64,000 bases of DNA, from the NCBI GenBank assembly GCA_029941135.1, contig JAPYRI010000001.1:6275-70274 (forward strand), read 5' to 3'. This document shows positions 2,981 to 43,460 of the stretch, piece after piece. The position numbers and the translations under genes are program-made. Numbering within the stretch: position 1 is the first letter of the stretch; each line of letters opens with the position of its first letter. Origin of the DNA: Alphaproteobacteria bacterium (GTDB taxonomy: Bacteria > Pseudomonadota > Alphaproteobacteria > JAPYRI01). The notes below the pieces were generated by a model. That model searched no databases and was not told the DNA's origin. It saw only the letters and a program-made list of their open reading frames with translations.

Positions 2981-4573
2981 TTAATCCGCCTTTGGGTCCT
3001 TGGTCATATCGTCCCCCGCCAATGCCCGGCGTATCAAAGCCATAGATTCTTCAACCCCATACAGGGCAAAAAACGAGCCTATACGGGGACCCTGGCTTTG
3101 TCCGAACAGAACTTCGTATAGCGCCCGGAACCAATCCCTCAGGTTGTCGAAGCCGTTCTCCTTACCGACCTCATAAACCTCGTGCTGCAGGGTTTCGCCA
3201 TCTTCGCCTTTCAGTCCTTCCATTCGAAGGACGAGATCTTCCATTGCTATCCGCTCCTGATCTGTCGGCGCACGGTACTTCTTGTTCGGCTTCACAAAAT
3301 CCTGATAGTAGGAAATTGCATTGCCGAGCAAGTTATCAAGTATCCGATGGTTTTCGGGTGTCGCGTTGGGATCGTAACGGCTGATGAATCCCCAAAGAAC
3401 TGCCTTATCCTCTGAATTACAAGCACTCGCCAGATTAAGCAGGATCGAAAAGCTTAGCGGCACTTTTTCGCTCGGCGGGCTACCGCGATGTATATGCCAA
3501 ACCGGATTGCCTAAGTGTTCCTTGTCGTCCTGGTCCGGATAACGGTGGAGATGGGTGATGTACTCGTCCACATTTTTGGGGATGACGTCAAAGAAAAGGC
3601 GTTTGGCTTTTTTGGGATTTTGAAACATGTAAAGCGAGAGACTTTCCGGCGGCGCGTGCCGCAACCATTCGTCAATGGTGAGGCCGTTGCCCTTAGACTT
3701 CGATATTTTAGCGCCTTCTTCGTCCAAGAATAACTCGTAGGCGAAACCGTCCGGTGGATTGCCTCCAAGGATGCGGCATATGCGGTTGGATAGGCGGACC
3801 GAGTCAATTAAATCCTTGCCGTACATTTCGTAATCCACATCCAAAGCCGCCCAGCGCATGGCCCAGTCTGCCTTCCACTGGAGCTTGCAATGGCCGCCCG
3901 TGACCGGCACTTCAACTCGGTTACCCTGATCTTCGTAGACGATCGTGCCGGCATCCACATTGCACTCAACAACCGGCACCTGGAGCACTACCCCGGTGTT
4001 CGGACAGAGCGGCAGAAAAGGGCTGTAAGTCGCCTGCCGTTCCGCGCCCAGCGTCGGTAAAATAACCTCGATCACCTCGTCATAGTTGGCAAGGACGTTA
4101 AGCAGTGTTTCATCAAGGGCGCCGGATCGATATTGCTCGGTCGCACTCTTAAACTCATAGTCAAACTCGAAGGCATCTAAAAACGCACGCAGACGCGCAT
4201 TGTTGTGGTGTCCCAAACTTTCGTGAGTGCCAAAGGGGTCAGGAACCGCCGTCAATGGTTTACCCAGGTGTTGCGCCAGCATCTCCTGATTGGGCAGATT
4301 GTCTGGAACCTTGCGAAACCCATCCATATCGTCCGAATAGGCAAACAAACGAGTAGGAATATCGCTCATAAGCGAAAACGCGTGCTGTACCATGGTCGTT
4401 CGCGCAACTTCGCCGAAAGTTCCAATGTGGGGCAAACCACTGGGCCCATAGCCGGTTTCAAGCAGCGCATAGCCTTTGGTAGGCGGGCTTTTGGTCAAGC
4501 GCTGAACCAATTTGCGGGCCTCGATAAAGGGCCAGGCCTTTGCATCATCAGGAATAATCATGGGAGCAGACAT
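2981..4573 (-). CDS. lysK: Lysine--tRNA ligase, class I (archaeal-type LysRS found in alphaproteobacteria).
   Basis: HIGH-type motif PHIGTFGE and a KMSKS-type motif KISKSKGN. Reading from the internal start [16 protein letters not shown] (ATG at 4571-4573) gives about 530 aa, which fits class-I LysRS. The ORF-track call 2981..5053 adds 160 non-conserved N-terminal residues that run into the divergent intergenic region. Confidence 0.8.
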
Positions 4574-16861: not shown

Positions 16862-16935
16862 ATTGAGATTGGAGCGGGTGAAGGGAATCGAACCCTCGTC
16901 GTAAGCTTGGGAAGCTTCTGCTCTGCCATTGAGCT
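16862..16935 (-). tRNA. tRNA-Gly (anticodon CCC).
   Basis: Minus-strand read: GCGGGTGTAGCTCAATGGCAGAGCAGAAGCTTCCCAAGCTTACGACGAGGGTTCGATTCCCTTCACCCGCTCCA. The anticodon loop is TTCCCAA, the T-arm is GGTTCGATTCC, and the CCA is genome-encoded. The cloverleaf was folded by eye. Confidence 0.8.
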
Positions 16936-17145
16936 ACACCCGCCCGATGTCCTCAACAAAAAGTGGGCACTCAGCGTCGTATCTTGCCGCGATTCCGTTG
17001 CCGCTGCCGAACATCATATCGGCTCATATGGTCGCCGCAAGGGAACTATTGCATCTCGCAACAACGTGCTTGGTTTGGCTGGACCTCTATAAAAGAGCCC
17101 AATTTTAGCCGTTTTACTCTCTTGTCTGAATATGTGACAAAATTT

Positions 17146-38550: not shown

Positions 38551-39669
38551 ATGCATGTCGGATACAGCGCGTTTTTTCAAAATCTCACCGGGGACCTGAC
38601 CGACCATCAGGTCTATCAAAACGCTATTGAGCTCGCCGATATGGCTGAGCCTCTAGGTTTCGAGTCGATCTGGGCGGCCGAGCACCATTTTACCGAATAC
38701 ACCATGTGCCCGAACGTCACTCAGTTCCTCACCTACATGGCGGGGCGCACCAAAACCGTAAAATTGGGCGCCATGGCTTATATCGTGCCGTGGCACGAAC
38801 CGATCCGGCTGGCAGAAGAAATTTGTGTGTTGGACAACGTATCAAACGGACGCGCAATTCTGGGCTTTGGTCGCGGCTTGGGCCGGGTCGAATTCGATGC
38901 CTTCCGCCTCGAGATGGGGGAGAGCCGGGAGCGGTTCGTTGAATTTACCGACGCCATCCTGACCGCCCTCGAGACCGGCTACATCGAATATGACGGCAAG
39001 CATTACCAGCAGCCCAGAGCCGGCATCCGACCCGCCCCCTTCAAGTCTTTCCGTGACCGCAGTTATGCCGCCGCCGTGTCCCCCGAATCAGCGCGCATCA
39101 TGGCCCGCCTCGGCATCGGCATCCTCGTCATTCCACAGAAACCCTGGGAAATTACCAAGCAAGAAGTGGCCATGTACCGGGAGATTTTTCGCGAAGAAAA
39201 CAATGGCGCCGAAGCGCCCAAGCCGATCATCGCCGCATTTGTCGCCTGCCACGAAGACGAAAGCGTGGCCAAAGAAATGCACGAGAAATATATCCGGCGC
39301 TACAGCCGCTCGGCGCTTGAACATTACGAATTTGCCAATGCTGAATTGGCCAACATCAAGGGTTACGAGTACTACGGCGGGATCGCCAAAAACATCGAAA
39401 AACACGGCGTCGATGCCTTCGTCAATTTCCTCGCCGACCTGCAGATCTGGGGCACCCCCGATCAGGTGTTCGAGCAGATGATGGAACATCAAAGTATGAT
39501 CGACAGCGGCGCCTCGGTCGGTATGTTCAGTTATGGCGGCATGCCCCACGACATGGCAACCGGCAATCTGAAACTGTTCGCGGAAAAAGTCCTGCCACGC
39601 CTAAAAGCGCAAGACGTGGGCGAAACCATTGGCGGCGCGGGCACGCCTCTGACAGTCGCCGCCGAGTAG
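38551..39669 (+). CDS. LLM-class flavin-dependent oxidoreductase (luciferase-like monooxygenase, bacterial luciferase/SsuD-like subgroup).
   Basis: 372 aa. Starts MHVGYSAFFQNL…GFESIWAAEHHFTEYTMCPNV…, a characteristic LLM N-terminus. It is divergent from paaX. Confidence 0.7.
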   Translation: MHVGYSAFFQNLTGDLTDHQVYQNAIELADMAEPLGFESIWAAEHHFTEYTMCPNVTQFLTYMAGRTKTVKLGAMAYIVPWHEPIRLAEEICVLDNVSNGRAILGFGRGLGRVEFDAFRLEMGESRERFVEFTDAILTALETGYIEYDGKHYQQPRAGIRPAPFKSFRDRSYAAAVSPESARIMARLGIGILVIPQKPWEITKQEVAMYREIFREENNGAEAPKPIIAAFVACHEDESVAKEMHEKYIRRYSRSALEHYEFANAELANIKGYEYYGGIAKNIEKHGVDAFVNFLADLQIWGTPDQVFEQMMEHQSMIDSGASVGMFSYGGMPHDMATGNLKLFAEKVLPRLKAQDVGETIGGAGTPLTVAAE

Positions 39670-39788
39670 ATTTTCTCGCACTTTTAAGGTCCTTCCATAT
39701 GGGAGGCCCTTTTTTGTGGGTATATTGCGTTTAGAAGTTGGTTGTGGGCGCCGGTGATCGCAGTTTGGTGAAGTTTGTCGTCTAGCCG

Positions 39789-40814
39789 TTGCAAAACCAC
39801 CGCCAAAACATACCATCGGGCAGCATTCGAGTAATCTACCCTTTTGACCATGTTTTTTGTATGAACATACACCCGCCAATAAAGTTTCTGGACCCGCGAA
39901 CGACTGTTGACGGCAGTCCTCGCGCGACAGTCAAGCTCATGCATCTGGAAACCTTGTGGTTCAATACTGGCACGCTCTGCAATCTTGAATGCAAAGATTG
40001 CTATATCGAGTCGAGCCCCAAGAATGATCGCTTGGTTTACCTGACCGCCAACGAAATCTCGGTTTTTTTGGATGAGATCGAACGCGATCATTTGGGCACA
40101 CGGGAAATTGGCTTTACCGGCGGCGAGCCTTTCATGAACCCCGATATCGTCGCCATGATGACAGATTGCCTCGAGCGCGGGTTCGAAGTGTTGGTGTTGA
40201 CCAACGGCATGCGGCCGATGATGAAGCTCGATACTCAATTGTTGGCGCTGAACTGCCGATTCGGTGCCAAACTTAGGTTGCGTGTGTCCCTCGATCACTA
40301 CAGCAAATCGCGCCACGAAGAGTTGCGCGGTCCACACTCGTGGGCGCCGACCATTACCGGCTTGACGTGGTTGTCAGATCAAGGATTCCGTGTCCACATG
40401 GCCGGCCGTACGGTTTGGGGCGATGACGAAGCCACAATTCGCAATGGGTTTGCCCATCTATTTTCGCAGATGAACCTCAACATCGACCCTCACAGCCCAA
40501 CACAATTGATATTGTTTCCGGAAATGGACGAAGCTGCGCCGGTGGCCGAAATAACCACCTCCTGCTGGTCTCTCCTCAGCGTCGATCCAAATTCTCTCAT
40601 GTGCGCAAGCTCACGCATGGTTGTGAAACACAAGGGCGCCGACCGGCCTACCATACAGGCCTGCACCCTGCTGCCCTACGACCCGCGCTTTGCGCTCGGA
40701 TCCTCTTTGCGCGCCGCCACTTCCGACCCGGTTGCCCTTAATCACCCCCATTGCTCCAAATTTTGCGTGCTTGGCGGCGGCGCCTGCAGCGTTTCAGAGG
40801 TCTCCTCGACTTGA
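39789..40814 (+). CDS. Radical SAM/Cys-rich-domain protein (TIGR04167/ArsS-like family).
   Basis: CxxxCxxC (TGTLCNLECKDCY) in the first 70 residues. The C-terminal roughly 100 aa holds six further Cys (…CWSLL…CASS…ACTLL…HCSKFCVLGGGACS). The stop codon is TGA. The likely start is the ATG at 39861 (MNIHPP…) or 39939 (MHLETL…). Confidence 0.6.
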   Translation: MQNHRQNIPSGSIRVIYPFDHVFCMNIHPPIKFLDPRTTVDGSPRATVKLMHLETLWFNTGTLCNLECKDCYIESSPKNDRLVYLTANEISVFLDEIERDHLGTREIGFTGGEPFMNPDIVAMMTDCLERGFEVLVLTNGMRPMMKLDTQLLALNCRFGAKLRLRVSLDHYSKSRHEELRGPHSWAPTITGLTWLSDQGFRVHMAGRTVWGDDEATIRNGFAHLFSQMNLNIDPHSPTQLILFPEMDEAAPVAEITTSCWSLLSVDPNSLMCASSRMVVKHKGADRPTIQACTLLPYDPRFALGSSLRAATSDPVALNHPHCSKFCVLGGGACSVSEVSST

Positions 40815-40934
40815 CCAGGAACAAAGGAGGGTATACGAATTAAATCTCGTGGTGATTTGAGCCGACCGGCTTGCGGCCACGTAAAATAAACCGCTAAAAG
40901 GTCGAGATGGCACCCAGCCCCCCCCGACCGCCCC

Positions 40935-40989
40935 GGTCGATTTTTTTGTGGCCGGGTATAATTTGGCCGACCAAAAGGGAGCCAATGCC
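40935..40989 (+). promoter_or_regulatory. Candidate SAM-II (metA-element) riboswitch in the metZ leader.
   Basis: CGAUUUUUUUG–UGGCC-GGGUAUAAUUU-GGCC–GACCAAAAGGGAGCC directly precedes the metZ ATG. A 5′ U-tract, a short hairpin, then a 3′ A-tract plus SD is the SAM-II pseudoknot/triplex architecture. SAM-II is known upstream of metA/metX/metZ in alphaproteobacteria. No covariance model was run. Confidence 0.4.
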
Positions 40990-42198
40990 ATGTCGCCCTC
41001 AAATGAGAGCAACAACAAGACCGCAATGCGGCCGCGCACGGCCCTGGTCCGCGGCGGTCTTCACCGATCGCCGTTGGGGGAAACCTCGGAAGCGATATTT
41101 CTCACTTCGGGCTTTGTTTACGACGACCCGGAAGTGGCCGCGGCGCGCTTTAGTGGCGATGCGGATGGCTATACTTATTCCAGATTGCGCAACCCAACAG
41201 TCGCCATGTTCGAAGAACGCATGGCTCTGATCGGTGGCACTGAGATCGCCCGCGCGACCGCGAGCGGCATGGCTGCCGTAGCGGCATCTTTCCTGTCGCA
41301 AGTGAAAGTGGGAGATCATGTGGTTGCGGGTGAAGCTTTATTTGGCTCTATCCGGGTGATCCTGGAAGATGTCCTGCCCCGATTCGGCGTTGACCTCACC
41401 ATGGTCAATAATACGGACCTCGAGGCTTGGAAACAGGCGGTCCAGCCGGAAACCACATTGTTTTTTTTGGAATCCCCTTCCAATCCCACATTAGGGATCA
41501 CGGACCTCCAGGCCGTGGCCGATATTGCCCATAATGCCGGGGCAAAAATCATTTTGGATAATGTGTTCGCCACCCCTGTTCTGCAACGTCCGGTCGAATT
41601 TGACATCGATATCACGATTTATTCGGCAACCAAGCACATTGACGGCCAAGGCCGCTGTTTGGGTGGCTGCATATTATCCGATCAAAAGTTTCTGGATGAT
41701 TTTCTTGATCCCTATTTGCGTCACACCGGACCTGCTCTCAGTCCCTTTAACGCCTGGGTGCTGTTGAAAGGAATTGAAACGCTGGAACTTAGAGTTGAGG
41801 CCGCCTGCCAGAATGCGCAGCATGTTGCGGATTTTCTCGCAGAACAGCCAGGGGTCACAAAGGTATTATACCCGGGGCGGCAAGATCATCCCCAGCACAC
41901 GCTTGCCATGCGCCAAATGAGCGCCGGCGGGACACTCGTTTCATTCGAGTTACCCGGGGGTCGCGAGCGTGCGTTTGCGTTTTTAAAGGCGCTCAACTTG
42001 ATCGATATTTCCAACAACCTGGGCGATACTAAGAGTCTGATCACCCATCCGGCCAGCACCACCCATCAACGCCTGTCACCCGAAGATCGCGCCGCCCAGG
42101 GTATTGGCGAAGGTCTGGTTCGCCTGTCAGTCGGATTGGAAGATGCGGATGATCTGACTGACGATATTGGCCAAGCGCTAGCGGTGGCGGCGCTCTAA
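40990..42198 (+). CDS. metZ: O-succinylhomoserine sulfhydrylase (Cys/Met-metabolism PLP-dependent enzyme).
   Basis: 402 aa from the ATG at 40990 (SD GGGAG 8 nt upstream). The ORF-track start at 40948 is a GTG inside the putative riboswitch. The PLP-lysine region is …IYSATKHIDGQGRCLGG…. Confidence 0.8.
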   Translation: MSPSNESNNKTAMRPRTALVRGGLHRSPLGETSEAIFLTSGFVYDDPEVAAARFSGDADGYTYSRLRNPTVAMFEERMALIGGTEIARATASGMAAVAASFLSQVKVGDHVVAGEALFGSIRVILEDVLPRFGVDLTMVNNTDLEAWKQAVQPETTLFFLESPSNPTLGITDLQAVADIAHNAGAKIILDNVFATPVLQRPVEFDIDITIYSATKHIDGQGRCLGGCILSDQKFLDDFLDPYLRHTGPALSPFNAWVLLKGIETLELRVEAACQNAQHVADFLAEQPGVTKVLYPGRQDHPQHTLAMRQMSAGGTLVSFELPGGRERAFAFLKALNLIDISNNLGDTKSLITHPASTTHQRLSPEDRAAQGIGEGLVRLSVGLEDADDLTDDIGQALAVAAL

Positions 42199-42295
42199 AC
42201 ACTGGACAAGCCGAGAAGCAAATTAGATATTCGCATGATTCCAACAATGCTACAGCAGGCTCTTTCTTCTTTGACCTAAATGCACAGACCAACTT

Positions 42296-42688
42296 ATGTA
42301 TGAAGCCGTTACCAGATCAATTTCAGTCCAAGTAGAGCCCCGTTATATGGACGATAAGTCGGCACCCGAAGAAGACTACTTCGTGTGGGCTTATCGCGTT
42401 TATATCGAAAATCAGGGTGGGGAGACAGTACAACTCCGCAGCCGCCATTGGCATATCACAGATGCGCTGGGGCGTGTTCAAGAAGTGATGGGCGAAGGCG
42501 TGGTTGGCGAGCAACCGGTGCTCGCGCCCGGCGAAACCTTTGAGTACACGAGCGGCACGCCGCTATCGACCCCGTCCGGTGTCATGATGGGCAGCTATCA
42601 AATGGAAACTGATAGGGGCGCGTCTTTCGATGTGGTTATTCCGGCATTCTCGCTGGACAGCCCCTATGAAGACCGGGCCCACAATTAA
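42296..42688 (+). CDS. apaG: ApaG (DUF525) protein.
   Basis: 130 aa. The family-defining central stretch is …[43 protein letters not shown]…. Confidence 0.85.
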
Positions 42689-42818
42689 CCGTCAACTTTG
42701 TCGTCGACGTTAATAACTGGATTTGGCAATAATTCCTCATTGGGGTATTTTGGGCAATTCCACGCATTAATATGGTTGTTGTGCCCGGGCAAGCTCGGGA
42801 AAATTCAGGAGACGGCAT

Positions 42819-43460
42819 GTGACGGCACCATCTGATTCGAATTTGGCCAAAGCAAACTTGAAAACTGTTGGCGGTCGCCCTTCCCGTGAGGAGGCCGAAC
42901 GCGCGGTTGAAACTTTGATCCGCTGGGCCGGGGACAACCCGGAACGGGAAGGACTGCTTGAAACGCCCGCACGCGTGATCCGTTCTTATGAGGAATTTTT
43001 CGACGGATACAACCGCGATCCGGTAACTTATTTGCAACGCACCTTCGAGGAAATCAACGGCTATGACGAAATGGTCGTGTTGAAGGACATTCGTTTCGAA
43101 TCCCACTGTGAACACCATATGCTGCCGATCATCGGCCGCATTCATGTGGGGTATTTACCCAAAAAGCGGGTCGTCGGAATCAGCAAACTTGCCCGCGTTG
43201 TCGAAGCTTATGCCCGGCGCCTACAAGTACAAGAAAAAATGACCGCGCAAATTGCGAAGTGTATTCAGGACGTTCTTGACCCCAAGGGTGTCGCAGTCAT
43301 GGTCGAGGCCACACACCAATGCATGACAACTCGCGGGGTTCACAAGGCCGGGGTCACCATGGTCACGAGCCAAATGCTGGGCGCACTACGAGAAGACCCT
43401 AAGACGCGCCGGGAGTTTTTGGCGGCCGTGGGCAGTCCGTCGAGGACTTTCGACGGCTGA
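42819..43460 (+). CDS. folE: GTP cyclohydrolase I.
   Basis: 213 aa. Conserved blocks …[22 protein letters not shown]… and …[13 protein letters not shown]…. Confidence 0.9.

Follow-up and report, generated by a model that had tools for sequence, protein, structure and literature searches.

A SAM-II aptamer followed by a conserved intrinsic terminator in the leader of an alphaproteobacterial metZ gene

The leader of metZ, the gene coding for O-succinylhomoserine sulfhydrylase, raises in the DNA analysed here a question of place and of mechanism, that is, where its element responsive to S-adenosylmethionine (SAM) is located and whether control would be exerted on translation or on transcription. 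The window, namely the whole stretch of DNA that was analysed, comprises 64,000 nucleotides (nt) of an alphaproteobacterial genome (GCA_029941135.1, contig JAPYRI010000001.1, positions 6,275-70,274 of the forward strand), and its metZ leader was read letter by letter over positions 40600-41300; unless otherwise stated, the features described below lie on the plus strand. A sequence-only reading had proposed a riboswitch of the SAM-II class at 40930-40992, directly in front of the start codon, in which a pseudoknot would hide the Shine-Dalgarno sequence upon SAM binding. The class was recognised correctly and the place was not: the aptamer occupies positions 40839-40917, about 90 bases upstream, and is followed by an intrinsic terminator. 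The metZ leader is, with high probability, a canonical SAM-II riboswitch acting as a transcriptional OFF switch.

Aptamer and terminator in the metZ leader

A scan of the whole window with the Rfam models at gathering threshold returned one riboswitch only, RF00521 (SAM_alpha), at 40839-40917. The match spans the complete model (positions 1-79 of 79) and reaches 72.8 bits (E 1.9e-14), where the family requires 36. It has no overlap with 40930-40992 and is placed, as expected of SAM-II, in the leader of a methionine-synthesis gene. The long-loop variant RF01726 reached 20.1 bits, below its threshold of 44 (E 0.073); the aptamer belongs to RF00521 and not to this variant.

Within the match, helix P1 joins CGUGGU (40848-53) to GCCACG (40876-81) by five Watson-Crick pairs and one G-U pair, and 89.6% of the corresponding cells are paired in an alignment of the 10 members of the clade. 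The pseudoknot helix P2a joins the loop CGACC (40863-67) to the tail GGUCG (40900-04), with 5/5 pairs in a base-by-base check. The U-rich loop strand GAUUU (40854-58; GAUUUG, 40854-59) matches the consensus, as does GCUAAAA (40893-99), which together with the tail GGUCG makes up the 3' strand GCUAAAAGGUCG (40893-40904). The residues of GAUUU and GCUAAA are those that we take, from the literature and general knowledge, to be the SAM-binding triplex. In other words, the pseudoknot and the triplex belong to GAUUU and CGACC (40854-67) and to GCUAAAAGGUCG, not to the U7 tract, the GGCC hairpin and the A4 tract to which the sequence-only reading had assigned them.

Comparison with relatives was carried out at two levels. 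Close metZ relatives, retrieved by a protein search, show 98, 87, 81, 79, 78, 77, 76, 69 and 67% identity, and two leader alignments taken from the contigs of relatives make up the clade comparison, with 10 members including the window. A wider survey covered 80 metZ loci at 56-68% amino-acid identity, all from alphaproteobacterial-type genomes. SAM-II is located upstream of metZ in 62/80 of these loci (31 recognised by motif and 31 more by Rfam), as well as in five of the six close relatives fetched first (L081-L085, by Rfam), the sixth, L086, ending at a contig edge. The number of SAM-II leaders differed between the analyses: 67 in the terminator survey, 65 as non-redundant aptamers, 53 in the comparison of tail and terminator arm, 58 in the folding of transcripts and 43 in the equilibrium models.

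Across the 65 non-redundant aptamers the TTT and CTAA columns are invariant, and the pseudoknot keeps 5/5 pairs in 63 leaders. The middle pair of this helix varies with compensation, being G-C 38 times, A-U 20 times, G-U five times and never A-C, a distribution that none of 2000 permutations reached. The metZ-leader aptamer is predicted to bind SAM.

Just downstream of the aptamer, a terminator scan identified an intrinsic terminator whose stem pairs CGACCG (40925-30) with CGGUCG (40934-39) around a CCC loop and is followed by an A and by U7 (40941-47). The hairpin at 40925-39 folds at -8.8 kcal/mol (z -5.2), a value matched by 0/200 shuffles. The U7 tract that had been read as part of the aptamer is, therefore, the tail of this terminator, and the interval 40930-40992 opens in the middle of its stem. 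All nine clade relatives keep the terminator with a stem longer by 1-2 bp, in the general form CCCGACC...GGTCGGG followed by T8, and in one of them (L127) the compensated variant CCCGGCT...AGCCGGG is found. At the wider level, a hairpin with a folding energy of -7 kcal/mol or lower and a T-run after it are present between aptamer and metZ in 55/67 SAM-II leaders, against 9/67 and 3/67 in two control sets of same-length windows within coding sequence. Hairpin and T-run were undetected by this criterion in nine SAM-II leaders (L011, L014, L016, L029, L034, L035, L049, L054 and L057), which may employ translational control or may possess a terminator that escaped the filter.

A further trait of the window is a run of eight C residues (40918-40925) directly 5' of the terminator stem. 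In the relatives the matching CCC forms, with a GGG, the base of a longer stem; the 3' arm of the window terminator has lost this GGG (GGTCGA against GGTCGGG), and the C-run consequently has no partner there. Some of the predicted folds join it to the GGG of the Shine-Dalgarno sequence.

Predicted switching and the proposed mechanism

Folding was computed with software that does not treat pseudoknots, and the SAM-bound state was represented by excluding the loop and tail strands of the aptamer from pairing. With the aptamer strands free, the minimum-free-energy structure of the transcript 40844-40947 is an anti-terminator extending over 40883-40944, the predicted SAM-free structure, in which the aptamer tail GGUCG (40900-04) pairs with CGACC (40925-29) in the 5' arm of the terminator. 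Further pairs lengthen the helix, joining ACCG (40890-93) to CGGU (40934-37) and AAAAU (40883-87) to AUUUU (40940-44). Mean pair probabilities in this transcript are 0.97 for the anti-terminator and 0.02 for the terminator, and blocking of the aptamer loop and tail brings the latter value to 0.97. The anti-terminator helix is already there in the shorter transcript 40844-40933. Since the strand GGUCG (40900-04) is shared, the anti-terminator is predicted to be mutually exclusive with the ligand-bound fold of the aptamer.

The relatives show the same complementarity between aptamer and terminator. Specifically, the tail 5-mer is fully complementary to the 5' half of the terminator in 47/53 leaders, and the variable position of this tail/arm pairing is C:G 23 times, U:A 15 times, U:G nine times and C:A never, a result reached by 0/2000 permutations. 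In addition, when transcripts are folded up to the 3' arm of the terminator, the anti-terminator helix appears in 49/58 leaders, with six pairs in the window.

Transcription would begin at a promoter-like element at 40810-40837, composed of CTTGAC (40810-15), a 16-nt spacer and TATACG (40832-37). CTTGAC is invariant in all seven clade leaders that reach that far, and a -10-like T(A/G)TA(C/G) is likewise conserved. A near-consensus promoter a few nucleotides before P1 is typical of SAM-II (Corbino et al. 2005, PMC1273637), and the two boxes of the window, judged by their conservation and by this precedent, point to a putative transcription start near 40843-46, a few nucleotides before P1.

The following sequence of events may be proposed. 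RNA polymerase would start near 40844 from the CTTGAC/TATACG promoter, and the aptamer at 40848-40904 would fold into P1 and an H-type pseudoknot. With SAM bound, the tail GGUCG (40900-04) would be locked on the loop CGACC (40863-67), leaving CGACCG (40925-30) free to pair with CGGUCG (40934-39) and to form, with U7 (40941-47), the terminator. At high SAM, a leader RNA of about 100 nt (104 nt for 40844-40947) would be released before metZ is reached. At low SAM, the tail would instead pair with the 5' arm of the terminator, the resulting anti-terminator would allow polymerase read-through, and metZ would be translated from GGGAG (40977-81) and the ATG at 40990. Termination at the metZ leader would thus depend on the ligand, according to these folding models.

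Four points weigh against this interpretation. The terminator stem of the window has only 6 bp and -7.3 to -8.8 kcal/mol, the weakest of the set, where relatives have 7-8 bp or more; being so short and weak, it could terminate with low efficiency. Equilibrium models are switch-like in just 13/43 relatives because most of them have terminators more stable than their anti-terminators, so that kinetic, i.e., co-transcriptional, control must be assumed. Terminator riboswitches are usually under kinetic control, and the equilibrium test across relatives neither supports nor refutes the switch mechanism. Moreover, the pseudoknot, represented by the blocked strands, lies outside the energy model of the software. 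Finally, a strict scan for sigma-70 promoters of the E. coli type did not call the CTTGAC/TATACG element, because TATACG is without the final T.

Start codon, spacer hairpin and alternative readings

The metZ gene extends from the ATG at 40990 to position 42198 and codes for a protein of 402 aa that scores 550.3 bits against TIGR01325 (cut-off 510.05) and 524.1 against PRK08133 (cut-off 522), with both profiles beginning at residue 7. The Shine-Dalgarno sequence GGGAG (40977-81) lies 8 nt before this ATG; GGAG is kept at its position in most clade members, and the ATG column is conserved. The mechanical list of open reading frames (ORFs) contains instead a 416-aa frame starting from a GTG at 40948. 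The closest homologues have 402 aa, start with MS(P/S)S where the ATG aligns and show an equal distance from there to a conserved RPRT motif, and nearly all close relatives are called at 400-403 aa. The GTG adjoins the U-tract of the terminator, is devoid of a Shine-Dalgarno sequence, falls within a lineage-specific insertion and is GTA in L081. It is very probably a false start, with the ATG at 40990 the true one, as the sequence-only reading had suspected; that reading had put the GTG inside the riboswitch element, and its actual place is just 3' of the terminator, in the insertion.

Inside metZ, near its 5' end, the minus strand carries at 41019-41036 hairpins that resemble terminators and have T-rich tails (GGCCGCATTGCGGTC followed by TTGTTGTT); these are probably chance matches in coding sequence, and two more weak terminator-like sites are found on the plus strand at 41272-86.

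Between terminator and Shine-Dalgarno sequence the window carries a lineage-specific spacer (40948-40969), made of a 14-nt insertion (GTGGCCGGGTATAA, 40948-61) and of a GGCC...GGCC hairpin (40949-57 with 40961-69) whose 5' arm is provided by the insertion. All the literal features named by the sequence-only reading are in place: T7 at 40941-47, GTG at 40948-50, GGCC at 40950-53 and 40965-68, AAAA at 40973-76, GGGAG at 40977-81 and ATG at 40990. Their conservation is uneven. Relatives share the U-tract with the hairpin upstream of it, the Shine-Dalgarno sequence and the ATG, and within the clade also the promoter-like boxes and the aptamer. The insertion, in contrast, occurs only in the window and in L081 (98% amino-acid identity) and is missing from the other eight clade members, and A4 (40973-76) is replaced by unrelated bases elsewhere in the clade. 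GTA for GTG in L081 breaks one G-C pair of the hairpin, with no compensation. Judged from these alignments, U-tract, hairpin and A-tract do not form a unit that is conserved together, and the spacer hairpin probably has no function in the riboswitch. The interval 40930-40992 is thus the 3' half of the terminator, the spacer hairpin and the ribosome-binding site, and not an aptamer.

The insertion resembles an imperfect tandem duplication of the bases that follow it, with TTTG-TGGCCGGGTATAA beside TTTG-GCCGACCAAAAGG (40948-40972), and creates, together with the spurious GTG, a TATAAT hexamer (40957-62). The latter was considered as a promoter bypassing the riboswitch and was rejected: it has no acceptable -35 box or TG extension, the promoter scan called no sites there, and it lies within the lineage-specific insertion. 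A second candidate, pairing of the linker 40903-12 with the start-codon region 40986-95, was suggested by the minimum-free-energy structure of the full leader and was likewise discarded as not conserved, since 54% of cells are paired in the 10 clade members against 50% in shuffles and at most 44% in slid controls.

Among the alternatives to a purely transcriptional switch, the one that survives best, although unlikely, is a lineage-specific dual or shifted control, in which a weakened terminator and the new hairpin add a translational layer. In transcripts that escape termination, pairing of the U-tract with A4 and GGG (40973-79), or of the C-run (40918-24) with GGG, would partly occlude the ribosome-binding site. 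In the ensemble of the transcript 40844-41010, blocking of the aptamer strands raises the probability of the hairpin from 0.06 to 0.57 and reduces the unpaired probability of the Shine-Dalgarno sequence from 0.39 to 0.28 and of the AUG from 0.65 to 0.52, and the minimum-free-energy structure of the full leader pairs U40944-47 with A40973-76 and the GGG of the Shine-Dalgarno sequence with CCC. The terminator of the window is, as said, the weakest of the set, and combined effects of terminator and translation have been described for the SAM-II element of Sinorhizobium meliloti metA (PMC9373788). However, the predicted effect is small and context-dependent, and two folding runs gave different structures. 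The hairpin is restricted to two near-identical sequences whose single difference breaks a pair, and the z-scores are marginal: the hairpin at 40948-70 folds at -9.6 kcal/mol (z -2.15). The other long-range pairing considered, that of linker and start codon, is not conserved, as reported above. The more specific proposal that the 14-nt insertion and the 6-bp terminator stem mark a shift of this lineage from transcriptional to combined transcriptional and translational control appears somewhat more doubtful still; if true, the U-tract, set free in SAM-bound transcripts that escape termination, would contribute to masking the Shine-Dalgarno sequence.

It is quite improbable that the hairpin and U7 are unregulated, as a constitutive attenuator or as the terminator of the upstream radical-SAM gene, with the aptamer acting otherwise, e.g., through Rho or RNA stability. 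The short stem and the end of the upstream ORF just 110 nt before the hairpin would fit such a scheme, and SAM-dependent stabilisation of riboswitch RNAs has been reported in S. meliloti (PMC9373788). Nevertheless, the terminator has a fixed position just 3' of the aptamer in 55/67 leaders with different upstream genes, its 5' arm covaries with the aptamer tail, and a conserved promoter-like element separates the upstream stop codon from the aptamer.

In some riboswitches of the SAM-II and SAM-V classes, the Shine-Dalgarno sequence is hidden within P2. A pseudoknot or triplex of this kind within 40930-40992 itself, with U7, the GGCC hairpin and A4 hiding GGGAG on SAM binding, is hardly credible and is refuted as far as sequence analysis reaches: U40941-47 can pair with A40973-76 and G40977-79 around the GGCC hairpin (-12.7 kcal/mol, z -1.6) and a metA SAM-II with Shine-Dalgarno sequestration is on record (PMC9373788), but a permissive scan confined to 40918-41010 gave no match to RF00521, RF01726, SAM-V or any other riboswitch even at E<=10, its sole return being a partial match of 11 bits to a small RNA model, at the terminator end of the latter, the folding of the entire interval does not surpass that of shuffled sequences (z -1.07 and -0.20), the SAM-II core sequences GAUUU and GCUAAA are not present in it, one hairpin arm and A4 are not conserved, and the actual aptamer is located upstream. 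The tail of the true pseudoknot ends at 40904, and the Shine-Dalgarno sequence lies 73 nt 3' of it, beyond the terminator, a distance at which the pseudoknot cannot directly sequester it.

Gene neighbourhood and relation to known SAM-II systems

The -35 box of the metZ promoter-like element overlaps the stop codon (TGA, 40812-14) of the upstream radical-SAM ORF. The conserved gene order of the clade (window 38551-43460; also L082, L083, L128 and L129) is luciferase-like monooxygenase, radical-SAM protein, metZ preceded by SAM-II, apaG, folE and trkH, where the radical-SAM protein is weakly Rv1681-like and folE codes for GTP cyclohydrolase I. The only other Rfam match at gathering threshold in the window is a tRNA-Gly(CCC) gene on the minus strand (16870-16943).

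The closest relatives of the window are uncultured alphaproteobacteria derived from metagenomes. A clade-specific pattern, GCTAAARGGTCGWGAYGG, was run against metagenomes and gave 39 matches, of which only two are SAM-II leaders (L100 and L116, the latter sharing its contig with L083); the remaining 37 matched by chance and have no SAM-II leader. In three relatives, aptamer and terminator are separated from the downstream metZ by about 650 nt (L013, 783-877; L024, 764-857; L041, 557-653), and an ORF of about 210 aa is found between riboswitch and metZ (in L013, 879-1514). By eye, this intervening ORF resembles PaiB-like FMN-binding regulators, and the riboswitch may control a two-gene operon in these relatives. 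In L014, a cobalamin riboswitch (RF00174, 94.5 bits, 3179-3386) lies about 500 nt downstream of metZ and presumably leads the next gene.

The nearest known counterpart is the metZ SAM-II of S. meliloti, for which termination is predicted to follow SAM binding and for which Scheuer et al. (2022, PMC9373788) detected RZ, a leader RNA of about 100 nt that builds up when SAM is high. Gene, aptamer class and predicted terminator mechanism are the same, and the expected leader of 104 nt is comparable with RZ. Unlike the S. meliloti case, the window has a shorter terminator stem and a 14-nt insertion between terminator and Shine-Dalgarno sequence. The founding SAM-II of Agrobacterium tumefaciens metA (Corbino et al. 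2005, PMC1273637) similarly has P1 and a P2 pseudoknot, with a promoter a few nucleotides in front of P1, and precedes a gene of methionine biosynthesis, from which P2 is separated by an intrinsic terminator; in the window the downstream gene is metZ, and no other architectural difference was detected between the two. At the level of mechanism, the SAM-I (S-box) riboswitches of Firmicutes are also alike, as binding of SAM makes the anti-terminator strand unavailable, which lets the terminator form and turns methionine genes off (PMC1273637). The fold is unrelated, with a four-way junction in SAM-I and an H-type pseudoknot in the window, and the taxa are other.

The SAM-II and SAM-V elements that sequester the Shine-Dalgarno sequence, such as the metagenomic metX SAM-II and the AUG1 of S. 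meliloti metA, have the same ligand-binding fold as the aptamer of the window and correspond to the model behind the sequence-only reading. In these the ribosome-binding site stands in or beside the 3' strand of P2, whereas in the window it is placed 73 nt downstream, past the terminator. The metagenomic metX SAM-II is the construct of the crystal structure.

The riboswitch of the window is a typical representative of a system already known, Rfam detects it directly, and its architecture has been described before (Corbino 2005; Barrick and Breaker 2007; Scheuer 2022, for S. meliloti metZ). The findings in the metZ leader open no new question, and their main value is one of annotation: a riboswitch at 40839-40917, a terminator at 40925-40947 and a metZ start at the ATG 40990 (402 aa) rather than at the GTG 40948 (416 aa). 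The locus represents one more case of an established pattern, by which SAM-II of alphaproteobacteria usually operates through intrinsic terminators, and the survey quantifies this pattern for metZ.

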